From the IMG/VR virus record IMGVR_UViG_3300031088_000737, positions 117,271 to 181,270 of that record: a stretch of DNA of 64,000 nucleotides; one strand, 5' to 3'. Positions 409-45,727 of the stretch are shown here, in pieces. Each line of letters opens with the position of its first letter. Positions within the stretch are counted from its first letter, which is position 1. Origin of the DNA: a virus. The notes below the pieces were generated by a model. That model searched no databases. It was not told the DNA's origin and saw only the letters and a list, made by a program, of their open reading frames with translations. A program made the translations under genes and the position numbers.

Positions 409-2277
409 ATGGAAGGTCATACCGCGTCACTTTTAAAAAATAAGAAATTTTTACCCTTATTTTTAACTCAATTTTTTGGGGCTTTTAATGATAACGTTTT
501 TAAAAATGCGTTAATCATGATGATAGTATTCAAATTGGCAACAGATACCAATTTATACGTTAACTTAGCTGCAGCTTTATTTATTTTACCCTTTTTCTTG
601 TTTTCAGCGGTGGCAGGTCAAATTGCTGATAAGTATGAAAAGTCTTTTGTGATTAAAGTTAACAAATTTATAGAAATTCTTATTATGTTGATGGCAACCA
701 TGTTCTTTTACATGAATAGTATCAATGGATTGATAGCTGTTTTATTCTTGATGGGAACACAATCAGCATTTTTTGGGCCTTTGAAATACAGTATTTTACC
801 ACAACACTTACATGAAAAAGAAATCATGGCAGCCAATGGATTTATTGAAATGGGTACATTCTTGGCTATCTTGCTGGGTACCATGTTAGGCGTTGGTTTA
901 ATTGCTCAACAAAATGGTGAAGGCTTGGTGTCAGTTGTTATTTTAGCGATTTCTGTTATAGGCTTTGTAACGAGCTTGTTTATTCCAAAAGCTCAATCAT
1001 TAAATACAGCCACTAAAATCAATTACAATATATTTACAGCAACTTCTGGTGTATTTAAAATTATGAAACAACAACAGAAATCAGTAGTGATGTCTATTTT
1101 TGCTGTTTCATGGTTTTGGTTCTTGGGAGCTGTTTATCTGACACAATTACCACAGTTTGTAAAAAGTGAACTTGGGTATTCTGAGTCTGTTGTCACCTTG
1201 TTTCTTGTGGTGTTCTCTGTTGGTATAGGTTTAGGCTCCATGTTGTGTGAACGTATCTCAAAAGATTACATTGAAGTCGGTTTAGTAGCTTTTGGTTCAT
1301 TTGGTATTACTTTGTTTGGTATCCTAATGTTTTTTGAAGTTCAAAGCTTTGATTCATTATCGTTGGTGGTCAACAATACATTATTAACATTAGAACAATT
1401 TAAGCAAGACCCAAGAAGTGTTTATCTTTGCACTTATCTATTCTGTATTGGATTATTTGGGGGGTTCTATACAGTTCCTTTGTATGCAATGATTCAAACC
1501 AGAACCATTAAAGAACATATGTCACGTATTATTGCTGCCAACAACATCTTGAACTCAATCTTTATGGTAGCATCTGCAATTGTGGCTATCATCTTATTAA
1601 AGTTCTTAAAGATTAGTCAGTTGTTTTTAGCCCTATCGTTGTTTAACTGGGTAGTTGCTTATTACATTTATAAGAAGATACCAGAATTCTATCTACGTTT
1701 TATGACATGGTTTGTGTTAACGTTCATGTATAGAATAAAAACACACAATCTTTCTCATGTGCCAAGTGAAGGAGCGGCAGTAATTGCAGTGAACCATGTA
1801 AGTTTTGTAGACGCTTTAATTATCACCAGTGAAATTAAAAGACCAATGAGATTTATCATGTATTACAAAATATTTAACATTCCAGTGTTGAATTGGTTGT
1901 TTAGACAAATGGGTGGTATCCCTATTGCGGGTATTAAAGAAGATCCTAAGATTTTGGAAGAATGTTATGTAAAGATAAAAGAAGCCTTGGAAAACGGTGA
2001 ATTAGTATGCATATTTCCAGAAGGAGCCATTACTTATGATGGTGAACTCAAAATTTTTAAGAGTGGTATTGAGAAGATTATCGAAGCAACGCCAGTTCCA
2101 GTTATTCCAGTCGCTATCAAAGGGGTATATGGTAGCATGTTTAGCAGAAAACATAAAGTGAGATTGCCTCGTAAATTCTTTAGACGAATTACAATTGAAA
2201 TAGGTAAACCGATACCAGCAGCAGATGCGAAAAAGCAAGTATTGTATGAAAAAGTTAAAGAGTTGATTGAAAAGTAA
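409..2277 (+). CDS. MFS lysophospholipid transporter fused to a PlsC-type acyltransferase (LplT/Aas-like)
   Basis: N-terminal TQFFGAFNDNVFK and about 12 TM segments; C-terminal NHVSFVD and FPEG acyltransferase motifs; AGGAG SD. Confidence 0.9.
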   Translation: MEGHTASLLKNKKFLPLFLTQFFGAFNDNVFKNALIMMIVFKLATDTNLYVNLAAALFILPFFLFSAVAGQIADKYEKSFVIKVNKFIEILIMLMATMFFYMNSINGLIAVLFLMGTQSAFFGPLKYSILPQHLHEKEIMAANGFIEMGTFLAILLGTMLGVGLIAQQNGEGLVSVVILAISVIGFVTSLFIPKAQSLNTATKINYNIFTATSGVFKIMKQQQKSVVMSIFAVSWFWFLGAVYLTQLPQFVKSELGYSESVVTLFLVVFSVGIGLGSMLCERISKDYIEVGLVAFGSFGITLFGILMFFEVQSFDSLSLVVNNTLLTLEQFKQDPRSVYLCTYLFCIGLFGGFYTVPLYAMIQTRTIKEHMSRIIAANNILNSIFMVASAIVAIILLKFLKISQLFLALSLFNWVVAYYIYKKIPEFYLRFMTWFVLTFMYRIKTHNLSHVPSEGAAVIAVNHVSFVDALIITSEIKRPMRFIMYYKIFNIPVLNWLFRQMGGIPIAGIKEDPKILEECYVKIKEALENGELVCIFPEGAITYDGELKIFKSGIEKIIEATPVPVIPVAIKGVYGSMFSRKHKVRLPRKFFRRITIEIGKPIPAADAKKQVLYEKVKELIEK

Positions 2278-2280
2278 GAT

Positions 2281-2309
2281 AAAAAAAAGAACCTTCGGGT
2301 TCTTTTTTT
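2281..2309. terminator. Bidirectional intrinsic terminator
   Basis: AAAAAAAAGAACC-TTCG-GGTTCTTTTTTT between convergent genes. Confidence 0.9.
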
Positions 2310-2322
2310 GTTGACTTAATTC

Positions 2323-2757
2323 TTAATAATAGACACCATTAAAACCTAAGACGCATTTTACTGCGGGATTTTTATCAAGATAGTTCTGATTGTGTTCTTC
2401 GGCTGGATGAAATCTTTCCATTCTTAGAATCTTTGTTTTCGATTCACCAACACGCCCAGCGAGTTTTATCTTTTGGTTAAATCTATTCAATGCCATCACC
2501 ATACTGGATTGATGATCAATGTTGGTGTAGAAAATATAACTTTGATATTTTTCAGGAATTTCTTTTAAGATGAATGAGTGATTTTCAAAAAATGTTCCCA
2601 AGTAATGATCGAGATCTTTTAATGATGAGTAAGTAATTTCAAGTAGTTCTATTCCATCTGGATTGTAACCAACTCGTGTCTCTAATGTGGGATAATTGTT
2701 TTTAAATATGTATTGCGAACTCCAAAAGCATCCCATTCCTAAATATAATTTATCCAT
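2323..2757 (-). CDS. msrA: Peptide methionine sulfoxide reductase A, shortened
   Basis: GMGCFW catalytic motif, TRVGY, FHPAEEHNQNYL. Confidence 0.8.
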   Translation of the reverse strand: MDKLYLGMGCFWSSQYIFKNNYPTLETRVGYNPDGIELLEITYSSLKDLDHYLGTFFENHSFILKEIPEKYQSYIFYTNIDHQSSMVMALNRFNQKIKLAGRVGESKTKILRMERFHPAEEHNQNYLDKNPAVKCVLGFNGVYY

Positions 2758-2861
2758 TGTGAGCCTCCTTATGGTTTTAATACTATTATACTCGATATAA
2801 AAACCTTTACAAACAAACGCATATAGTGTATTGTAAGCAATTAATACAAAAGGAGGATATC

Positions 2862-3302
2862 ATGTCATTAAAAGATGAAATAACACAAGCACGAGTTAAA
2901 GCGTTGAGAGAAAAAGACAACCTCACAAAAACAGCGGTTGGCTATATCCTTGCAGCGATTAAACAAAAAGAAGTAGACACTAAGAAAGAAGTCACTGATG
3001 CTGATGTCATTAGTATTTTGAAAACACTCATACGTCAACGTAAAGACGCTATTGAAGAATACAAAGACATTAAGGAATTGGTTGAAAAAGACTCAGCAGA
3101 AATTGAACTGTTGTCTAAATACATGCCAACACAATTAAGTGATGAAGATGTATTAGCTATCATTCGGGCTGGTATTGTACAAGCTAAATCTGAAAATCCT
3201 GTTATTGCTTTTGGTGATGTAATGAAATTAATCAAAAGTCAATTGAATGGTAAAACAGACATGAGTAAAGTTAAAGGGATGGTTGAAAAAGAACTTGGTT
3301 AA
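2862..3302 (+). CDS. GatB/YqeY domain protein
   Basis: SLKDEI...ALREKD...ILAAIKQKEVD...KQRKDAIEEY...EIELLSKYMP...FGDVMK...DMSKV; start set at the ATG after AGGAGG. Confidence 0.85.
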   Translation: MSLKDEITQARVKALREKDNLTKTAVGYILAAIKQKEVDTKKEVTDADVISILKTLIRQRKDAIEEYKDIKELVEKDSAEIELLSKYMPTQLSDEDVLAIIRAGIVQAKSENPVIAFGDVMKLIKSQLNGKTDMSKVKGMVEKELG

Positions 3303-3324
3303 CAAGTTCTTTTTTTTTACTAGA

Positions 3325-4167
3325 TTATTTTTTAAATGTTATATCCACAAAGTCATCCGATTTGCAGGCTTTTGCTAGGTCTATGTTTTTAATTTCTTTG
3401 TAGTTGTTTAATGTCTTGTCTCCTACAGTCACAGAACTCCATCCAACATTTTTTTCTTTTTTAATAAAATCAATACAATTAAAATCAGCTTCAACGTGTG
3501 TGTATTTAACTTCAAATGCATTACTGGATGTTCCTGATATTAACACTTCTCCGTCCCAATTGTTCATTATCGTTTTATCAGCTATCGTCATTGTGTTTGG
3601 AATTAGTCCTTCTTTAATGGCCGTGGCATTGTCTAATTTAAAGTTTCCTTTTTGTTTATAGATGTCATTTATATTTTTGTATAAAGCTGAGACATGTTCA
3701 GATTCGTGTTGGACATTGAGTTTATCTTTAACAGTTCCATATACTGTTATGGTTATTGCAATCAATCCAACAATTAAAAAAATCAACATCATCATCGGCA
3801 CCATACTAGCTTGTGGGCTAACGAGATATTTACCAGCTTCTTCTGGTGTGTCACACCATTTAATTTGTTCAATGGCGGCTTGATTAGGAGTTAATCCTTT
3901 AACAAAGGCTTCCTCTAGCGTATTAATATCTTCTGGTGATAAGTCAGGTGAAATTGTTTTGTTTGATGACATGTCTTGGTATGTTTCAAGAACCTTAGCT
4001 AACATTTCAGAGTCTTCTTTATACATCATCTTTAATATTAAGGTAGGTTTTAATAAGAATGCATTCAATGTTTTAGCATCAGGAATCAAAAGATGTTCTT
4101 CAAATTCTATTAACAATGTTAATTTGTGTTTGGCGTCGTTTAGCCAGATATCTTTTTCAGTGGTCAT
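3325..4167 (-). CDS. Membrane-anchored protein with a PilS/type IVb pilin-like C-terminal domain
   Basis: TM helix MVPMMMLIFLIVGLI followed by LIPNTM...NNWDGEVLI...FEVKYTHV...C...ACK...ITF. Confidence 0.55.
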   Translation of the reverse strand: MTTEKDIWLNDAKHKLTLLIEFEEHLLIPDAKTLNAFLLKPTLILKMMYKEDSEMLAKVLETYQDMSSNKTISPDLSPEDINTLEEAFVKGLTPNQAAIEQIKWCDTPEEAGKYLVSPQASMVPMMMLIFLIVGLIAITITVYGTVKDKLNVQHESEHVSALYKNINDIYKQKGNFKLDNATAIKEGLIPNTMTIADKTIMNNWDGEVLISGTSSNAFEVKYTHVEADFNCIDFIKKEKNVGWSSVTVGDKTLNNYKEIKNIDLAKACKSDDFVDITFKK

Positions 4168-4274: not shown

Positions 4275-6551
4275 TTACTCAGTTGTTGCTGCTTTGGTTC
4301 TTGAACGGCGTGTGGTGGTTTTCTTAGCCACTTCACAGCCGATGACAAATTCAACTTTGCCATCTTTCATCACTGCTTGAATAACTGAATTTTCAGGCAA
4401 TTGAGTGAATGTTACAAGCTTGGCAAGTGGCAGAGCAATAAGCTCTTTCACAATACGAGCCACTGGACGGGCACCCATTGCTGGTTCATAACCCTTCACT
4501 GACAATTCATCCAATACTGCAGTTTCAATTTCAAGTGTAAAGCCTTTCTTTGCCGCTTCCGCATAGATTGGAGCAAGGTTTTTGTTAACGATGTTCAAGA
4601 TCATGTCTTTATCAATCGCTTTAAACTCGACCATACCATCAAGACGGTTACGGAACTCAGGAGCAAAGATTTTATTCACTTGTTCCCAGTTTACCAAGCT
4701 GCTAACCGCTTCTTTGTTTTGTACAAAACCGATACCGTTTTTCTCTTGTGAAGACAACTTGATACCTGCGTTTGAAGTCATGATAATCAGCGTATTACGG
4801 AAGTCAATCTTACGACCTTCTGAGTCCGTCATGAAGCCATAATCAAGCACTTGCAAGAAAGCGTTGAACACATCAGGGTTAGCCTTTTCAAATTCATCCA
4901 AAAGGATAACAGAGTAAGGGTTTTTGTTAACTTGCTCAGTAAGCAAACCACCTTTACCATGACCGATATAACCAGCCGGGGCACCAATCAACTTAGAAAC
5001 AGTGTGAGCTTCCATGTATTCTGACATGTCAAAACGTAGCAAGCTCATGTTCATTTCTTTCGCCAGTTGTTTAGCCAACTCAGTTTTACCAACACCAGTA
5101 GGGCCGATGAACAAGTAAGAACCGATAGGTTTATCAACAGAGCCAAAACCACTTTTGTTCAATACGATAGCATCAACAATCTTTTCAACAGCACCATCTT
5201 GACCGAAAATTTGTTTCTTAATGTTGGTATCAAGATTTTTCAATTGTTCGCTCAATACACCTTCAACTTCTTTCACCGGCTGTTTAGCCATTTTAGAGAT
5301 AACTTCTTCTACAAGAGCAACAGTTACCACTTTTTCAGTCATACGAAGTTTTGCATATGCACCTGTTTCATCAAGCACGTCAATCGCTTTGTCAGGGAAT
5401 TTCTTGTTGTGCAAGAAACGAGCTGATAGGTTCACAATACTCGCAATGGCTGCATCATCATACGTCACACCATGACCTTTTTCGTATTGACCTTTAACTT
5501 GCTTCAACACATGCAAGGTAGCTTCTGGTGAAAGTTCATCCAAATCAACCTTGTTGAAACGGCGAGAAAGAGCTGAGTTTTTCTCAAAAACCTGACGATA
5601 TTCCTCAGTGGTTGTAGCACCGATGCAGCGAATTTTACCAGAAGACAAGTAAGGCTTCAATGTGTTACCAATGTCCATACCACCTTCTGACTTACCAGAG
5701 CTGATAATGCTATGGATTTCGTCAATGAAAAGAATAGTGTTGTTGTTAGAAACAGCATCAATAATCTTTTTAACACGATCTTCCAAATCACCACGGAATT
5801 TTGTACCCGCAACCATACCGTTCACATCAAGAGAAAGCACTTTAAAACCTTTCAACGAGTCGTGAATGTTACCAGCCGCAATTTTTTGAGCCAAACCTTC
5901 AACCACAGCAGTTTTACCAACACCTGCATCACCAACGATGATTGGGTTGTTTTTCTTACGGCGTGAAAGAATTTCTTCAATACGATCAACTTCTTCGACA
6001 CGACCGATCATTGGTTCAAGTTTACCTTGTGCCGCTTGTTCAGTAAGGTCAGTCACAAAAGAACGAATCAATTGACTAACGTTGGTGTTGGTACCATGAC
6101 GATCTTCTTCCATAACCGCTTTGCTACGTTGGTTATCGTATTCTACCAGTTGTTCAATGTTAACGTTGCTCTTAGTCAAAGCTTCTTGGGCTGGCAAGTG
6201 TGATGTTTCAAGAATAGTAATCAACAAGTCGATTTCATCAAGTTCATTACGACCACTACTCAAAATTTTCATAATGGTACGTTGCATTGCTTTTTCCATT
6301 GTCGCAGAATGCTTAAGTTCTTTACTTAGTGTGCGAGGTTTGTTAGTATCAACAGTTGCCTTCAAGTTGCTTTTGAGTTCATGTACGTTGATTTTGTTGT
6401 TATTAAGGATATTTCGGAATTCTGTACTTAAGTCAACCATTTTAAGTATGAGATATTCAGGAGACAGGAGGCCGTTATTCTCTTCGAATACTTGACCACG
6501 GATTGCTTCAAAAATTTTAATTAGGCTTTCGGACATATTAGCATTGCTCAT
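4275..6551 (-). CDS. clpA: ATP-dependent Clp protease ATP-binding subunit, ClpA-like
   Basis: Two AAA+ modules ([15 protein letters not shown] and [16 protein letters not shown]), RRKKNNP, DMSEYME, GYIG, GARP; start at the ATG after AGGAG. Confidence 0.93.
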
Positions 6552-37187: not shown

Positions 37188-38453
37188 ATGATTAGAAATA
37201 CTGAATTGTCGCCCAATAAAAGCAAATCGTTGAAAACGAAAGCGGATCATTATCTTGAGATCGTTGCTATTGCCACAGAGAATGGTGGTGAATGTTTGGA
37301 TAATGAGTATGTGGCAAGCAATATTAAGATGAATTTTAGATGTGTTGATAGTCATGAATGGTCAGCACGACCTAACGATATTAAACGTGGCACATGGTGT
37401 CCATCGTGTCGATCTAACAAAACAGAAAACCTTGTTCGACAATTCTTTGAAACAGTTTTTAACCAGCCATTTAAAGTTTCTAGCCCAGAATGGCTTCAAA
37501 TTGAAGGCGAACGAAAATGTATTCTAGATGGTTTGAACACTGATTTGAAGATTGCCTTTGAGTATCATGGCGAACAACACTATCATTATATCCCGCATTT
37601 TCATGACCGGGCCAATAAATCATTTGAATACCAGCAGGAACGCGATAAGAAAGTCAGATCGCTTTGTGAATCAAATGGCATCAAACTTATTGAGATTAAG
37701 TATTTGGAAGATGGTTACTCTCGTGAAACCTTTATTTCATACCTTACTGATATCTTTAAAGCCGAATTGGATATTACAGTCACTGCTCAACAAATAACTA
37801 AATTTAAAAAATTGCCATTTGCAAGTTCAAAAATTAATGAATTAAAAGAATTGGCTAAAAAAATGAAAGGTGAATGTCTATCTGTTAAATATTTAGGAAC
37901 CCATTCAAAAGCTAAATGGAAGTGTGAAAAAGGACATGAATGGGAAGCGGTACCTAAATCTATCAAAAAAGGTCATTGGTGCCCTTATTGTAATGGACGA
38001 CTAAGAGAAGGCAACACTTTAGAAGAAATTTCAGCGATTGCACGTTCAAAAGGTGGTCAATGTTTATCAATCAGTGTTCAAAATTTAAAAGAGAAACTGA
38101 GTTTTATCTGTTCAAATGGACATTCTTTCGAAACATCCAGTGATGGCATCCTTTATACCAATAAATGGTGTCCATACTGTGCCAAGAATAAATTGGTTGA
38201 TCCTATGGCTGATATGCACGAGCATGCCAAGCTTAAAGGTGGTAAATTTCTTTCGACTGTTTATGTTAATTCAACAGCTCCTTTAATGTTTGAATGTGGT
38301 GATGGACATACATGGAATACAACTTATTCATCCATTCGACACAGAAAGTCTTGGTGCCCTAAATGCCATAATAAGAAAAAAGGTCAAAACTTGGCTGGCT
38401 ATCTCAACAAACCTAAGATTATTGAGACGACTATCGAAATTCAAATAAAATGA
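37188..38453 (+). CDS. Zinc-ribbon repeat protein with a PD-(D/E)xK/Vsr-like endonuclease domain (homing-endonuclease-like)
   Basis: Four C..GHxW...G.WCPxC repeats; LDG..TDLKIAFEYHGEQHY and SNGIKLIEI. Confidence 0.75.
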   Translation: MIRNTELSPNKSKSLKTKADHYLEIVAIATENGGECLDNEYVASNIKMNFRCVDSHEWSARPNDIKRGTWCPSCRSNKTENLVRQFFETVFNQPFKVSSPEWLQIEGERKCILDGLNTDLKIAFEYHGEQHYHYIPHFHDRANKSFEYQQERDKKVRSLCESNGIKLIEIKYLEDGYSRETFISYLTDIFKAELDITVTAQQITKFKKLPFASSKINELKELAKKMKGECLSVKYLGTHSKAKWKCEKGHEWEAVPKSIKKGHWCPYCNGRLREGNTLEEISAIARSKGGQCLSISVQNLKEKLSFICSNGHSFETSSDGILYTNKWCPYCAKNKLVDPMADMHEHAKLKGGKFLSTVYVNSTAPLMFECGDGHTWNTTYSSIRHRKSWCPKCHNKKKGQNLAGYLNKPKIIETTIEIQIK

Positions 38454-38463
38454 TCTTATTTCA

Positions 38464-38492
38464 TTGACTTTTTTTGAAAATAGGTTTATAAT
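38464..38492 (+). promoter_or_regulatory. Sigma70-type promoter driving the leader/attenuator
   Basis: TTGACT-N17-TATAAT. Confidence 0.85.
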
Positions 38493-38520
38493 TGAAAAAT
38501 ATTAAATAGGAATTTATTTT

Positions 38521-38562
38521 ATGAACATTCAATTAACTATAAGAGCCAGAGCGATATCTTAG
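38521..38562 (+). CDS. 13-aa leader peptide MNIQLTIRARAIS
   Basis: ATG AAC ATT CAA TTA ACT ATA AGA GCC AGA GCG ATA TCT TAG; AGGA SD 9 nt upstream. Confidence 0.75.
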   Translation: MNIQLTIRARAIS

Positions 38563-38655
38563 TGAGCTAATCTCATTGAGAGGGGTTAGCACACGCTAAA
38601 CCCTCTGGCAAACGAATGTGGAGCCTTTGAGGGTAATAACTCAAAGGCTTTTTTT
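38545..38655 (+). promoter_or_regulatory. Ribosome-mediated transcription attenuator (alternative hairpins)
   Basis: Mutually exclusive pairings among GCCAGAG, GCTAATCTC, GAGGGGTTAGC, GCTAAACCCTCTGGC, AGCCTTTGAGGGT and CTCAAAGGCT. Confidence 0.7.
38622..38655 (+). terminator. Attenuator intrinsic terminator
   Basis: AGCCTTTGAG-GGTAATAA-CTCAAAGGCT followed by TTTTTT. Confidence 0.9.
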
Positions 38656-38746
38656 ATGCCTGTTTGAGAAGGGTAGACTATTACCCTAATGAATGTATAT
38701 CATTGATTTTAAAGGAAAAATATTTTAAAATAAATTAAAATAGTTG

Positions 38747-38775
38747 TTGACAAAGGTGAAAAGAGTTGGTAAGAT
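38747..38775 (+). promoter_or_regulatory. Second sigma70-type promoter just upstream of the tRNA array
   Basis: TTGACA-N17-TAAGAT with an extended -10 TG. Confidence 0.7.
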
Positions 38776-38831
38776 GTTAAACATGAAGAGTTGAGAAGCA
38801 AAAAGAAAAACGCTTCATAAAGAATAAATAT

Positions 38832-38909
38832 GGGGGCACATGTTCCAAGGGATGGCGAGTTTGCCTTGCACGCAGACTGCGAAGAGTTCGATTCTCTTTG
38901 TCTCCACCA
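38832..38909 (+). tRNA. tRNA-Ala(UGC), atypical D arm
   Basis: G3:U70, loop CTTGCAC, TTCGATT T-loop, encoded CCA. Confidence 0.85.
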
Positions 38910-38950
38910 AATTTGTTGACTTGATGTGTTATAGAACAAACTTAAAATAT

Positions 38951-39025
38951 GGGCTGTTAGTTTAACTGGGAAAATACCTGCCTTGCACGCAGATGTTCAG
39001 AGTTCGATTCTCTGACGGTCCACCA
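38951..39025 (+). tRNA. tRNA-Ala(UGC)
   Basis: Cloverleaf, G3:U70, CTTGCAC, CCA. Confidence 0.9.
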
Positions 39026-39049
39026 GATTAGTTGTAGAAAGAGAATTAT

Positions 39050-39126
39050 GTCTGCGTAGCTCAGTTGGATAGAGCATCCGCCTTCTAAGCGGATGGTCGT
39101 TGGTTCGAATCCAACCGTAGACACCA
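39050..39126 (+). tRNA. tRNA-Arg(UCU)
   Basis: TCCGC-CTTCTAA-GCGGA, A20, CCA. Confidence 0.93.
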
Positions 39127-39146
39127 AATTAGATGTAACCAGATAT

Positions 39147-39221
39147 GGGCTGATAGTTTAACTGGGAAAACACTTGCCTTGCACGCAGGAGTTCAGAGTT
39201 CGATTCTCTGTCGGTCCACCA
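39147..39221 (+). tRNA. tRNA-Ala(UGC)
   Basis: Cloverleaf, G3:U70, CTTGCAC, CCA. Confidence 0.9.
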
Positions 39222-39238
39222 GATTTAAGTAATACAAT

Positions 39239-39313
39239 GGGGCTTTTAGTTTAACTGGCAAAACCTTGGGATTTCTCCTAAAGAATATGGTTCGAGTCCA
39301 TATAGCTCCACCA
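39239..39313 (+). ncRNA. tRNA-like RNA with an Ala acceptor (G3:U70, A73, CCA) and a TTTC tetraloop instead of an anticodon loop
   Basis: GGGGCT/AGCTCC acceptor, D arm GTTT/AAAC, TTGGGA-TTTC-TCCTAA, T arm TATGG-TTCGAGT-CCATA. Confidence 0.7.
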
Positions 39314-39328
39314 GTTTATAAGTTTCAT

Positions 39329-39405
39329 GGGCCATTAGTTCAGTTGGTAGAACGCCTGCTTTGCACGCAGGATGTCATGAGTTCAAATCTCATATGTGTC
39401 CACCA
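39329..39405 (+). tRNA. tRNA-Ala(UGC), one-base bulge in the acceptor stem
   Basis: CCTGC-TTTGCAC-GCAGG, G3:U70, CCA. Confidence 0.85.
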
Positions 39406-39422
39406 GTTTTAAAATTTTATAC

Positions 39423-39496
39423 GGGGTTTTAGTTTAACTATCGAAAAACAACAAGGAAACTTGTAAATGAAAGGTCGAAACTTTCAGACTCCACCA
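39423..39496 (+). ncRNA. tRNA-like RNA with an Ala acceptor (G3:U70, A73, CCA) and a GAAA tetraloop instead of an anticodon loop
   Basis: GGGGTTT/AGACTCC, GTTT/AAAC, ACAAG-GAAA-CTTGT, GAAAG-GTCGAAA-CTTTC. Confidence 0.8.
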
Positions 39497-39511
39497 AATA
39501 ATGTTTTTTAT

Positions 39512-39587
39512 ATTCTCATAGCTCAACTGGAAGAGCAATGACCTTCTAAGTCATCGGTTGTAGGTTCGAGTCCTACTGGGAATGCCA
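39512..39587 (+). tRNA. tRNA-Arg(UCU)
   Basis: ATGAC-CTTCTAA-GTCAT, G73-CCA. Confidence 0.9.
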
Positions 39588-39596
39588 AATTAGTTA

Positions 39597-39770
39597 GTTG
39601 ATGTTTCAACTGATTTAAACGCTACATGTTGCCTGATTAGCAACTAGTATACTGGTCAAGTATGATTGAAGCAGCTTAATCACTGCAGTCTGACCTCTGA
39701 TAAGTATATCCGGTAGGTATTTACCGTCACTTCGAAGCGTGGAGATATTTATTATCGTTGAAGCGTTAGC
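39597..39770 (+). ncRNA. Candidate multi-stem structured ncRNA
   Basis: 14-bp closing helix GTTGATGTTTCAAC/GTTGAAGCGTTAGC with several G-U pairs, enclosing about five hairpins. Confidence 0.6.
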
Positions 39771-39784
39771 GGAAATACTATTAT

Positions 39785-39859
39785 GGGCTGTTAGTTTAGC
39801 TGGGAAAATACCTGCCTTGCACGCAGGAGTGCTGGGTTCGAGTCCCTGACGGTCCACCA
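39785..39859 (+). tRNA. tRNA-Ala(UGC)
   Basis: CCTGC-CTTGCAC-GCAGG, G3:U70, CCA. Confidence 0.9.
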
Positions 39860-39871
39860 GTTTTGTTGTTT

Positions 39872-39948
39872 GTCCGTGTAGCTCAGTTGGATAGAGCGTC
39901 TGCCTCCTAAGCGGAAGGTCGTAGGTTCAAATCCTATCACGGACGCCA
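39872..39948 (+). tRNA. tRNA-Arg(CCU)
   Basis: TCTGC-CTCCTAA-GCGGA, CCA. Confidence 0.93.
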
Positions 39949-39978
39949 GTTTTGATATTTTATTTAGAGGATTAATCA

Positions 39979-40512
39979 ATGGTAATTGCTTATGTGGCAC
40001 CTTTGTTAAAAGATGATTATATTAACGCAACCGCTGATAATAAAACTATTAAAGAAAGTCATGATATTCGTGAAAAAATTGTAGCTCGCTCTCTTTATGT
40101 ATTTGATAAAATTGCTGAGTTGTTGAATTTAAAATATAATTGGGTTGCTTTTGATACTATTGATTTAGAAAAATATCAAGGTGCCGATAACGGAGAATAT
40201 GATTATCAGCGTTATTTTGAAACGTTTAAATTTTATAGTGATATTGACGAATTAGAATATAAAAATAAAATTATTGATGTTTATTGTAATCAATTTCCAT
40301 CAAGTTTTATTTATGAAGAATTTGAAGATGAAGTTCTTGGAACGGCTGAATCAATTAAGCTAGGTATTGATTTAAAAAAAGAAAGAGCAGATAGAAAACG
40401 AAAACATGATAAGGATAAAGAAAAAGAACGCAATAAGATTAGACCAGAAGTAATAGCTTCTATTAAATCTAAATTGAGTGAATTAGAATTATCTTTTGTT
40501 GATTTTAAATGA
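39979..40512 (+). CDS. Hypothetical protein embedded in the tRNA array
   Basis: GAGG SD, 177-aa ORF, basic coiled C-terminus. Confidence 0.75.
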   Translation: MVIAYVAPLLKDDYINATADNKTIKESHDIREKIVARSLYVFDKIAELLNLKYNWVAFDTIDLEKYQGADNGEYDYQRYFETFKFYSDIDELEYKNKIIDVYCNQFPSSFIYEEFEDEVLGTAESIKLGIDLKKERADRKRKHDKDKEKERNKIRPEVIASIKSKLSELELSFVDFK

Positions 40513-40593
40513 TTTAACAAAGAATAAGGGAGTTTTACTGTAAAGGTGAAACTGGATTGGAGCCGTGGTTTCCGGGGGGCATTCATTCACTAT

Positions 40594-40670
40594 GGGATTT
40601 TAGCTCAGTTGGTTAGAGCATCCGACTCATAATCGGCAGGTCGTAAGTTCAAGTCTTACAAGTCCCACCA
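40594..40670 (+). tRNA. tRNA with CAU anticodon, probably Ile2 (lysidine; reads AUA)
   Basis: CCGA-CTCATAA-TCGG anticodon arm resembles gammaproteobacterial Ile2; the Ile2 versus Met call is inference. Confidence 0.8.
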
Positions 40671-40686
40671 AATTAGATGTGTATAT

Positions 40687-40761
40687 GGTTCTGTAGCATA
40701 ACGGTAAATGCACCCCGCTCATAACGGGATGATTAAGGTTCGATTCCTTGCAGAACCACCA
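40687..40761 (+). tRNA. tRNA with CAU anticodon (Met or Ile2)
   Basis: CCCG-CTCATAA-CGGG, paired G1-C72, CCA. Confidence 0.85.
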
Positions 40762-40764
40762 GAT

Positions 40765-40893
40765 AGTAGAAAGGTAGCTTAACGGGAGAGCAGCCGGGAT
40801 GACCCGGTAACTTTAAATCTCATGTCAGATAAATTCTCGTAATTTATAGGCCATGTGGATAGTGGTAATGGTTCGAATCCATTGCTTTCTACT
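40765..40893 (+). ncRNA. Extended tRNA-like RNA (tetraloop anticodon arm plus a ~55-nt multi-hairpin insert; no encoded CCA)
   Basis: AGTAGAAAG/CTTTCTACT, D arm GCTT/GAGC, GCCGGG-ATGA-CCCGGT, T arm AATGG-TTCGAAT-CCATT. Confidence 0.7.
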
Positions 40894-40901
40894 TGCATTT
40901 T

Positions 40902-40977
40902 GGGGTTGTAGTTCAGTTGGTAGAACGCTTGTATGGCATACAAGAGGTCGTGGGTTCGAATCCCATCTTCTCCACCA
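40902..40977 (+). tRNA. tRNA-Ala(GGC)
   Basis: CTTGT-ATGGCAT-ACAAG, G3:U70, CCA; two U-U mismatches in the acceptor stem. Confidence 0.85.
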
Positions 40978-43786: not shown

Positions 43787-44239
43787 TTAAAACTTGTCTT
43801 TAATATCAATAACGTCTGTAATCAAGTAATCAATATTACCTTTAAATATGGTATTCATCTTAAATACAATGCTCAAATCAATACCCGTATTTGGATTAAC
43901 AGCTATAAGAAATGATGTATCTTTGTATTCTGATACTTTATCATCCAACATTATATAGTTTTTTATTTTATTTTTCGAAACAAAATTTAAACATTCATGC
44001 TGGCGTGTATACTCTTTATATCGTTCCGATAGGTCATCAGTTATTCCTATCACTTTATTATTAAGGATCTGATTGAAGAATTCTAAATCTTTAAGAAATC
44101 GCCATGTGGATGAGATAACAATGTGAATATTATTATGGCTGCAGTAAGCATTTAAGCAGGAAATAGCCTCTGGATACCAGACATTTTGTGTCGGATGTTT
44201 TAAAACACCATCAATATCTAGAAATATTATATTATCCAT
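43787..44239 (-). CDS. HAD phosphatase of the Swiss-Army-Knife RNA-repair type (HAD_SAK_2-like)
   Basis: IFLDIDGVL, IVISSTWR, YIMLDD. Confidence 0.8.
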   Translation of the reverse strand: MDNIIFLDIDGVLKHPTQNVWYPEAISCLNAYCSHNNIHIVISSTWRFLKDLEFFNQILNNKVIGITDDLSERYKEYTRQHECLNFVSKNKIKNYIMLDDKVSEYKDTSFLIAVNPNTGIDLSIVFKMNTIFKGNIDYLITDVIDIKDKF

Positions 44240-44296
44240 CTTTTATATTTACCTTTATGTGCTACACTATTATATAGAAAACAATAGAAAATAACA

Positions 44297-45727
44297 ATGG
44301 ATTATTACAAATTAATTGGCGAAGAAATTGCTTATTATGATATAAATGGCAAGAAACAGACAATCGGCACAATAAGACACATCAATGATGACAAAGCAAA
44401 GATAGCTTTTACTATTGATGGTCAAAATGCATTTCGTGAATTGGCTAAAAAAGAATATTTAGACAGAAGCGATATCTTAACACTTATGAAAACAAGCAAA
44501 AGAGAAGTAGACGCTTACTATGGTAGACCAACTACCGATGTTGGCAGTGTTTTCGATTTCGTCAAACAAACCGCAAAGAAAGGTTTTACTGAATTGTCTA
44601 TCGGTGATAACTCCAATGAGCAAATATACCTCAGAAAAGGACAGTTTGTAACCAACAATGAATCTATTTCTAACGTGTTTGATAATGCTGTTAAATCGGA
44701 TTTGGATGGTGATAAAGAAAGCCTTGTTGTTAAATCTATTCAGTTAAGTAAAGAAGGTAATAAAGTAGTGGGCCGTCACATTATGATAAAAGCCGCTGCT
44801 GACCCTGCTAATGACTACAAAACTTTATTAGAATTCGCCGCTCTCGAAACCTTAAAAGAAAGTGGTCTTAATGTGCCTAAGTATAAATTAGAAACAATTG
44901 ATAATCGTCCTTACTTGATTATGGAAAATTTTAACAAATCGAATTCTTTTGAACTGAATGTGATTAAGGATGAGCGTGGCACAGCTATTCAAGTCGCTGA
45001 TACTGCTGCATTTTACAGCACCAAATTGTCTTATGACATGAATGACATGGCTAAATGTTTCTCAAACAATAAAGCCAAATTAAACGATGAGAACTATGAA
45101 CATTCTTACCTTGTAGCCATGAAGCTTGCGAATGCTGTTCATGATTCTTCAACTTTGGATGGTGATACCAAAGAATATGTTGAAGCCAGAAAAAATAAAG
45201 TTCAAAAAGATTTAATGAAAGCATTGTCTTTTAATATTCTTATTGGGAACACTGATATGCACGGTGGCAATGTTAAAGTCTTATTGAACCAAGGATCTAA
45301 CCCGTTAACTAATAAACCAGATTTTGAGTTTGCACCTTTCTATGACATTACACCGCACTCTATCAATCAGCCGGGTAATAACGAATTATTAAGACATGGT
45401 AAAAATTTAAATACCTTGGAAGCAAAAGATTTGTATAATAGCAGTTATCGTGGAGTGGCTAGAACTGAAATGTTCCAGAAAGAGTTTGAAGACGCTAAGA
45501 AAATGGTTAAATCCTACAAAGAAAAAGTAACCAAACTATTAGAGAAAACACCAGAGTTGTTGGCAATGTTTAAAAATCATTTTACAAAAACTAACGAGTT
45601 TAAACGTATTCAACGATTTGATGGTATGGATTATGACTTAAGTGTTCTAGACACGGATAACAGAAAGCGTCCTGATCAAGTTAATATACACCATCAAAAC
45701 TTTAAATCGAAAGCCAAACACGTTTAA
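44297..45727 (+). CDS. HipA-family Ser/Thr kinase
   Basis: HIMIK, E..AL..L...GLNVP, FNILIGNTDMHGGN, FAPFYDITP. Confidence 0.8.
   Translation: MDYYKLIGEEIAYYDINGKKQTIGTIRHINDDKAKIAFTIDGQNAFRELAKKEYLDRSDILTLMKTSKREVDAYYGRPTTDVGSVFDFVKQTAKKGFTELSIGDNSNEQIYLRKGQFVTNNESISNVFDNAVKSDLDGDKESLVVKSIQLSKEGNKVVGRHIMIKAAADPANDYKTLLEFAALETLKESGLNVPKYKLETIDNRPYLIMENFNKSNSFELNVIKDERGTAIQVADTAAFYSTKLSYDMNDMAKCFSNNKAKLNDENYEHSYLVAMKLANAVHDSSTLDGDTKEYVEARKNKVQKDLMKALSFNILIGNTDMHGGNVKVLLNQGSNPLTNKPDFEFAPFYDITPHSINQPGNNELLRHGKNLNTLEAKDLYNSSYRGVARTEMFQKEFEDAKKMVKSYKEKVTKLLEKTPELLAMFKNHFTKTNEFKRIQRFDGMDYDLSVLDTDNRKRPDQVNIHHQNFKSKAKHV

Follow-up and report, generated by a model that had tools for sequence, protein, structure and literature searches.

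The last 64 kb of the IMG/VR record IMGVR_UViG_3300031088_000737 (181,270 bp), here called the window, carry in front of an array of tRNA genes a short element that we take, with a probability of about 0.7, to be a ribosome-mediated (leader-peptide) transcription attenuator. It would sense the pace of decoding at AUA, AGA and GCN codons, to which the tRNA genes behind it are cognate. This interpretation is supported by sequence comparison. Leader-peptide attenuation is textbook knowledge for amino-acid biosynthesis operons and for a synthetase operon; here it would be aimed at tRNA genes, and the input of the sensor, the decoding speed of specific codons, would be set by its own output, giving direct feedback on individual tRNA species, of a kind not known to have been reported in cells or mobile elements. 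Such an arrangement bears on how large phages and plasmid-like elements control big sets of tRNAs, and on whether these tRNAs answer tRNA depletion or cleavage. Given the strict codon choice described below, each leader may also be readable as a label of the tRNAs that the carrier treats as limiting.

The element begins with P1, which an earlier note, made from the sequence of the window, had described as a near-consensus sigma-70 promoter. P1 matches the consensus at 11 of 12 positions and ranks best among 37 promoter-like sites in the surrounding 5 kb. Close behind it come a Shine-Dalgarno (SD) sequence, a start codon and a short open reading frame (ORF), the order typical of leader attenuators (Table 1). 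The same note had reported an SD and a 13-codon leader with the core ATA-AGA-GCC-AGA-GCG-ATA, and all of these were found in place, the full reading being ATG AAC ATT CAA TTA ACT ATA AGA GCC AGA GCG ATA TCT. Ala, AGA/AGG and ATA codons together account for 8.0% of the codons in 164 long ORFs of the record, and a six-codon run of Ala/AGR/ATA is expected by chance at about 2.6e-7 per position. The 181-kb record, read in six frames, holds 3473 ORFs of 8-40 codons that start with ATG, and of these the leader alone contains a run of at least six such codons.

These control codons are cognate to the products of the downstream genes. Their decoders all lie within the array: Arg-UCU, Ala-GGC, Ala-UGC (the Ala genes comprise five copies of Ala-UGC and one of Ala-GGC, as called by ARAGORN and Rfam) and an Ile2-like tRNA with anticodon CAU, so that the set proposed in the earlier note, where Ile2 was listed as probable, is complete. 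The assignment of the last is based on likeness to Escherichia coli: the CAT tRNA at 40594-40670 shares 83% identity with an E. coli gene that has a CAT anticodon and the RefSeq annotation tRNA-Ile, the D arm matching in full and the anticodon arm for the most part, and as an Ile2-like tRNA it should read AUA. The first tRNA begins at 38834, and only tRNA genes and one ORF of 177 amino acids (aa) follow the leader. This is outside the classical scope of leader attenuators, in which biosynthesis or synthetase genes are regulated. A suggestion that the tRNAs compensate for AGA and AUA decoders that are rare in a GC-rich host finds no support in the sequence, given that the carrier has about 32% GC and AGA is its commonest Arg codon (13.4 per 1000). 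GCC and GCG are its rare Ala codons, and ATT outnumbers ATA 2.4-fold in the genome.

The 162-nucleotide (nt) leader transcript folds with a minimum free energy (MFE) of -49.3 kcal/mol, compared with -31.2 +/- 3.6 kcal/mol for shuffled sequences (z = -4.97), and none of 200 shuffles folded as well. All six complementary segments that had been recognized by eye, S1 to S6, were recovered at exactly the same positions. An intrinsic terminator precedes the tRNA genes, and an antiterminator mutually exclusive with it can form. Helix energies for the window are -9.7 kcal/mol for hairpin 1 and again -9.7 for S2:S3, -13.8 for S3:S4 (hairpin 2), -13.1 for the S4:S5 antiterminator and -17.8 for the S5:S6 terminator. 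From S2:S3 through S5:S6 these are four helices overlapping in series, and hairpin 1 overlaps S2:S3, so that each helix excludes its neighbours.

A scan of the whole record found just one other tRNA array, which lies on the minus strand at 77,614-79,500, outside the window, and consists of 11 tRNA-Leu genes (anticodons UAA, CAA, UAG, AAG and CAG), one tRNA-Gln and one odd tRNA. It is preceded by a leader region (L002 about 3400 to 3170, minus strand) with the same layout as in the Ala/Arg case: a promoter, TTGACT-17-TGATAAAAT, followed by GAGGA, 7 nt and ATG. The ORF, MFTTIRLSLLLLSSLLLSLG, has 20 codons, of which nine are Leu (in order TTA, CTG, CTA, CTC, TTA, CTA, TTA, CTT, TTG) with all six Leu codons used, and contains no ATA, AGA or GCN codon. 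The probability of at least nine Leu in 19 codons is 1.6e-5 at the genome's 9.0% Leu. Behind the ORF, a perfect 10-bp antiterminator (GUCCAGAUGC:GCAUCUGGAC) overlaps a terminator, GGACCC-CAAAA-GGGUC plus seven U, after which comes the block of a second promoter, P2; the fold of this leader has z = -5.8. A codon-matched leader thus stands before both of the two tRNA arrays of the record. On alignment, the two leader regions are unrelated between P1 and the terminator; identity then rises to about 90% over the stretch that begins with the U-run, takes in P2 and ends at the first tRNA. Each array thus joins a leader module with its own codons to a shared promoter module.

Relatives were found via the proteins adjoining the arrays, on metagenome contigs with the same arrays, and provided nine Ala/Arg and five Leu leaders. 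All nine Ala/Arg leaders have the P1 hexamers, a variable 17-nt spacer, an SD, tandem stops, hairpin 1, hairpin 2, the terminator and P2. The -35 and -10 hexamers of P1 are unchanged across nine relatives, and the SD reads AGGAA, AAGGAAA, GAGGA or GGAG, 7-9 nt before ATG. The leader and hairpins, whose absence from relatives that keep the array had been named as grounds for giving up the idea, are present in all eight relatives retaining the upstream region. The N-terminal codons of the Ala/Arg leader are unrelated between clades (MNIQL[T/I], MKDVKPF, MKNFNTYN) and its length drifts too. The Leu leader hardly changes in relatives that share only 52-54% identity in the 237-aa protein beside it; what substitutions the leader has are located in loops, and one of them turns Ser into Cys.

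The order of the control codons is permuted across five versions while the set is constant (Table 1). Ile in the cluster is always ATA and never ATT or ATC, even though ATT encodes Ile nearer the start of these ORFs. For Arg the codon is AGA throughout, never CGN, and Ala varies synonymously among GCA, GCC and GCG. Permuted order with fixed identity points to selection on the tRNAs called in decoding, rather than on RNA sequence or on the order of residues in the peptide. An unrelated phage tRNA cluster (L026), examined as a negative control, has no codon-matched small ORF in any of its nine inter-tRNA gaps. One further correspondence, a quantitative match of leader codon counts to tRNA copy numbers, was set aside as anecdotal: in L045, three ATA and one AGA codons face two Ile2-like and one Arg-UCU tRNAs.

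Covariation, which the earlier note had suggested looking for, is found in the antiterminator, where the strand varies between versions and complementarity to the 5´ arm of the terminator is kept through different sequences. The duplexes are ACCCUC:GAGGGU with GGC:GCC, UCCCUAA:UUGGGGA with GCU:AGC, UAAUCCCUAA:UUGGGGAUUA, CCCUAA:UUGGGG, and UAAUCCCUUGAA:UUUAAGGGAUUA. In L046 the terminator is altered (CUUUAAGG/CCUUAGAG) and the antiterminator strand is altered along with it. When the upstream strand was shuffled, 2000 times for each leader, a duplex as stable as the real one arose 50 times for the window, 10 times for L029 (clade B) and never for the Leu leader. The other helices are also retained. 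Hairpin 1 has 10 of 10 pairs in six relatives, with a TAG to TAA change that keeps the pair by turning G-U into A-U; S2:S3 has 8-9 of its 9 pairs in all relatives, with a G to A change that turns U-G into U-A; and the terminator is kept throughout, with one compensatory pair in L046. Two other candidates for core parts, S1:S4 and a long-range helix between the start-codon region and GAAUGU, were rejected, both being confined to clade A.

Folding of full-length transcripts does not discriminate between ribosome positions in the Ala/Arg leader, and transcripts cut just before the 3´ arm of the terminator were therefore folded instead, with 28 nt masked around each A-site codon. The model is an equilibrium one, and its measure of switching is the fraction of the terminator 5´ arm that pairs with upstream sequence. 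In clade A of the Ala/Arg leaders (four sequences) this fraction is 0.02-0.15 with no ribosome or with the A site on codons 1-4, when the fold is a three-way junction of S1:S4, hairpin 1 and hairpin 2. It is 0.4-0.58 with the A site on codons 5/6 to 9, partly to 12, when S2:S3 and the antiterminator form, and 0.05-0.38 with the A site at the stop. For the window, S2:S3 belongs to the MFE structure when the mask covers codons 5-11. In L045 the fraction is 0.63 and drops to 0.01 once the A site is on the last two codons. The five Leu leaders all give 0.6-0.99 on internal Leu codons and 0.06-0.09 on the last two or three. In these leaders a small hairpin, X (-9.2 kcal/mol), begins directly after the stop. 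Once a ribosome at the stop had opened the base of X, a long 1:2 hairpin (-20.4) would form and segment 3 would be free for the terminator; with X intact, segment 2 would form the 2:3 antiterminator (-22.4). The model predicts a switch in five of nine Ala/Arg leaders and in five of five Leu leaders. Constrained folding thereby reproduces, for the window sequence, the six-segment relay of the earlier note, in which a stalled ribosome leads to the read-through fold and a ribosome at the stop to the terminator fold, and it supports that relay for most members of the family, not all.

We propose that the attenuator acts between P1 and the tRNA genes that decode its control codons. A ribosome stalled on these codons would melt S1 and the 5´ arm of hairpin 1, allowing S2:S3 to form; S4 would then be free to pair with the 5´ arm of the terminator, and polymerase would read through into the array. 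A ribosome that has reached the stop codons would instead cover S2, S3:S4 and the terminator would form, and transcription would end near 38655. When the leader is not translated at all, the three-way junction would leave the terminator free and transcription would likewise terminate. The predicted outcome is negative feedback by which these tRNA species would limit their own supply, and the Leu leader would operate the same relay before the Leu array. The promoters, SD sites and intrinsic terminators are all of bacterial type, which fits the coupling of transcription and translation that this mechanism requires.

Several observations weigh against an attenuator of this kind, or at least against its simplest form. 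AGG is absent from the control codons despite an Arg-CCU tRNA in the array, and the other CAT tRNA of the array has no match in E. coli. The conservation of hairpin 1, hairpin 2 and the terminator lies mainly in sequence identity, and covariation beyond the antiterminator is modest, since RNAalifold found one pair changed on both sides and several on one side. At equilibrium, the full-length Ala/Arg transcript forms the terminator under every ribosome mask (P 0.93-0.99), so the Ala/Arg switch would have to be kinetic; the full-length trp attenuator likewise always forms its terminator at equilibrium, and its outcome is decided by the order of folding. L029 and L035 (clade B) and L046 have a strong antiterminator in every state and no clean switch, and L044 switches only partly. 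Finally, P2 lies between the terminator and the tRNAs, where the earlier note had pointed it out as a caveat, and is kept in every relative and in both arrays. With a conserved strong promoter below the terminator, read-through cannot be the sole route to expression of the tRNAs.

In 20 unrelated phage contigs the 19-nt core of P2 is also present, always with a TATAAT-like box 17 nt downstream of it, from which we conclude that P2 is, by sequence, a generic strong promoter with an upstream element. The most economical account would be one of tandem promoters with an attenuator between them, in which P2 provides basal expression and P1 contributes more while ribosomes move slowly over the control codons; given the strength of P2, the attenuator would most likely add conditional transcription from P1 to this basal level. 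We also allow for P2 being silent at some stage, or for read-through that interferes with P2.

P2 also figures in the rival that fares best, although we consider it unlikely: P1, the ORF and the terminator could form an independent peptide or small-RNA gene that shields P2 and the array, the terminator being an insulator and the codon match having no regulatory meaning. A strong conserved promoter below the terminator would suit such a gene, as would the stable fold of the full-length RNA with the terminator formed, and in other bacteria the RNA of a terminated attenuator can have a function in trans (rnTrpL, PMC6614838). An insulator, however, needs neither two unrelated leaders that each match their own array (Leu; Ala/Arg/Ile), nor control codons that are permuted yet kept in five versions, nor an antiterminator overlapping the terminator and maintained by co-varying sequences, and all three argue against it.

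Slightly less probable again is a general attenuator of translation status or starvation, which would report slowing from any cause (starvation, toxins, antibiotics) and tune tRNA output to global capacity. Leader-peptide attenuators cannot tell low tRNA from uncharged tRNA, as is established for trp and his, and genes for an RNA-repair-type HAD protein and a HipA-like kinase lie nearby, both of which would accommodate such a role. The strictness of the codons (only ATA, only AGA, all six Leu) and their match to each array argue, however, for sensing of particular tRNA species. Very improbable is a sensor made of RNA alone, loosely T-box-like, with an untranslated leader as the direct receptor of a tRNA, perhaps through codon-anticodon pairing, or of some other ligand. 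In its favour, the leader region is highly structured (z about -5) and its fold without a ribosome holds the control codons partly in helix S1:S4 and partly single-stranded. Against it, conservation extends to the SD, the correctly spaced ATG and the tandem in-frame stops but not to the N-terminal codons or the length, the Ala codons vary synonymously, S1:S4 is missing in clade B, and neither a T-box nor any other Rfam family matches.

We also offer, tentatively, a broader reading, to which we give somewhat less than even odds. The carrier may sort its tRNA genes into amino-acid-specific arrays, each with a codon-matched ribosome sensor, and so possess a self-referential tRNA homeostat that might double as an inducible counter-defence. 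Loss of tRNAs, for instance to host anticodon nucleases or through the carrier's take-over of translation, would be sensed as stalling, and replacement tRNAs would be made.

The likeness to known attenuators lies in design. In both leaders, as in leuL, hisL, trpL, pheL, thrL and ilvL, a short ORF with clustered regulatory codons lies close to the promoter, and antiterminator and terminator exclude each other; termination both with a ribosome at the stop and without translation is a further common trait, here a predicted one. The Ala/Arg/Ile leader is multivalent like those of thr and ilv, and the Leu leader is Leu-rich like leuL. Both depart from these enterobacterial leaders in their proposed targets, which are tRNA genes cognate to the control codons rather than genes for biosynthetic enzymes, in one extra helix behind the stop codon (S2:S3, for the Leu leader hairpin X) and in a second promoter downstream of the terminator, and they show no similarity in sequence or to Rfam models. 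Searches of Rfam with both leaders up to E = 10 returned tRNAs and chance matches only, and no match to Leu_leader, His_leader, Trp_leader, Thr_leader or T-box (RF00230).

The pheST attenuator of E. coli, with its pheM leader, controls a translation component for the amino acid whose codons it samples. Leader-peptide control of such a component is common to both systems, but the target of pheST is a synthetase gene rather than tRNA genes, and one amino acid is sensed. T-box riboswitches resemble the leaders in that the state of a specific tRNA feeds back on read-through through a choice between terminator and antiterminator; they differ in binding the tRNA directly and being untranslated, whereas here the SD, ATG and stops are conserved and no T-box model matches. 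In the tandem P1 and P2 promoters of bacterial rRNA and tRNA operons, regulation falls on the upstream promoter, and the downstream promoter is more constitutive. Two serial promoters before stable-RNA genes are shared with these operons, the difference being that here the output of P1 would be regulated by attenuation between the promoters. A search of the full-text literature for leader-peptide attenuation of tRNA genes found no published case, in agreement with the earlier note, whose author knew of no attenuator that controls tRNA genes through their own codons. The mechanism would be of a known kind, and its target, tRNA genes, new.

Table 1. Positions of the features discussed. Plain coordinates refer to the window; handles name other sequences.
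Feature	Location	Strand	Remarks
P1 promoter, TTGACT-17-TATAAT	38464..38492	+	sigma-70-type, 11/12 consensus positions
Shine-Dalgarno AGGAA	38508..38512	+	8 nt before ATG; read from sequence
Leader ORF MNIQLTIRARAIS	38521..38565	+	13 sense codons; tandem stops TAG TGA (38560-38565)
Control codons ATA AGA GCC AGA GCG ATA	38539..38556	+	each decoded by a tRNA of the array
Segments S1 to S6	S1 38545-51; S2 38566-74; S3 38580-90; S4 38595-609; S5 38622-34; S6 38640-49		S6 is followed by T7
Hairpin 1, UCUUAGUGAG / CUCAUUGAGA	38557..38581	+	stop codons in 5´ arm; in MFE fold
Alternative hairpin S2:S3, GCUAAUCUC / GGGGUUAGC	38566..38590	+	excludes hairpin 1 and hairpin 2
Hairpin 2 (S3:S4), GAGGGGUUAGC / GCUAAACCCUC	38580..38605	+	sequesters antiterminator strand; in MFE fold
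Antiterminator S4:S5, ACCCUC:GAGGGU + GGC:GCC	38600..38634	+	overlaps terminator 5´ arm
Intrinsic terminator S5:S6 + 7 T	38620..38655	+	12-pair stem, 38620-38651
P2 block	38700..38790	+	AT-rich upstream element; TTGACA-17-TAAGAT with TG (38747-38775); start of pre-tRNA leader
tRNA array	38834..40977	+	Ala x6, Arg-UCU x2, Arg-CCU, two CAT tRNAs, tRNA-like mimics (ARAGORN, Rfam)
Control codons, version 1	window, L037, L031, L038		ATA AGA GCC AGA GCG ATA
Control codons, version 2	L029, L035		ATA ATA GCG AGA GCA/GCG AGA ATA
Control codons, version 3	L046, L047		ATA GCA AGA GCC ATA GCG AGA
Control codons, version 4	L044		ATA GCG AGA GCG ATA AGA
Control codons, version 5	L045		ATA GCG AGA GCG ATA ATA
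Leu array with leader, antiterminator, terminator and P2 block	G000:C1:77614-79930; L002 1115-3431	-
tRNA with enlarged anticodon loop	G000:C1:79232-79317; L039 54-139; L041 3031-3114; L042 3040-3123

The record is classed as a provirus and estimated by CheckV to be 58% complete, and the earlier note had implied a phage. No match to Phage_capsid, Terminase_6N or Phage_portal was obtained in the 181 kb, and relatives lie on contigs of 1.0, 1.5, 1.8 and 1.9 Mb. The provirus label is doubtful, and the replicon may be a giant phage, a megaplasmid-like element or a small chromosome. Searches of GenBank phages by blastn and tblastn gave no close relatives, and neither did IMG/VR when probed with an exact 26-mer, the leader motif, the 276-aa neighbour or the 237-aa family; the 237-aa family was not found in GTDB species genomes, and the Ala-tRNA pattern as a probe matched only unrelated tRNA clusters.

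Genes in the window include those for a ClpB-like ATPase, an MFS-acyltransferase fusion, a CoaD-CoaE fusion and an ART-PolyVal protein. The RNA-repair-type HAD domain (of the 'Swiss Army Knife' kind) and the HipA-like kinase are encoded at 43787-45727, 3-5 kb downstream of the array. Just upstream of P1, at 37188-38453, lies a gene for a 421-aa protein with a DUF4379 treble-clef and a zinc-ribbon that resembles phage homing endonucleases; relatives have an ORF of 217-246 aa at this position. In L029 an arginyl-tRNA synthetase gene (2121-3749) lies about 0.7 kb upstream of the Ala/Arg leader.

Some of the tRNA genes are themselves unusual. In L045, two Ile2-like CAT tRNAs and one Arg-UCU tRNA (4340-4760) each stand behind the same TGATATAAT...CAACAAATATG block, which looks, from its sequence, like a private promoter. 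A tRNA-Asn belongs to the array of L045 too, and in the leader of this array three Asn codons precede the control cluster. The array in the window contains an aberrant tRNA-like gene at 39239-39313, with an Ala-type G3:U70 pair and a 6-nt anticodon loop (reported by ARAGORN as '???'), and another at 40768-40891, a 124-nt match to the Rfam tRNA model (31.9 bits) with a long insertion. In the Leu arrays of this genome and of three relatives, one tRNA has an enlarged anticodon loop, for which ARAGORN gives the four-base anticodons cgct, agct and agcg. The Leu array of L042 also includes a tRNA with a CUA (amber-reading) anticodon at 2645-2723, whose neighbours, called by ARAGORN as Leu(AAG) and Leu(UAG), are the same as those of the tRNA-Gln(UUG) of this genome (G000:C1:78767-78842).

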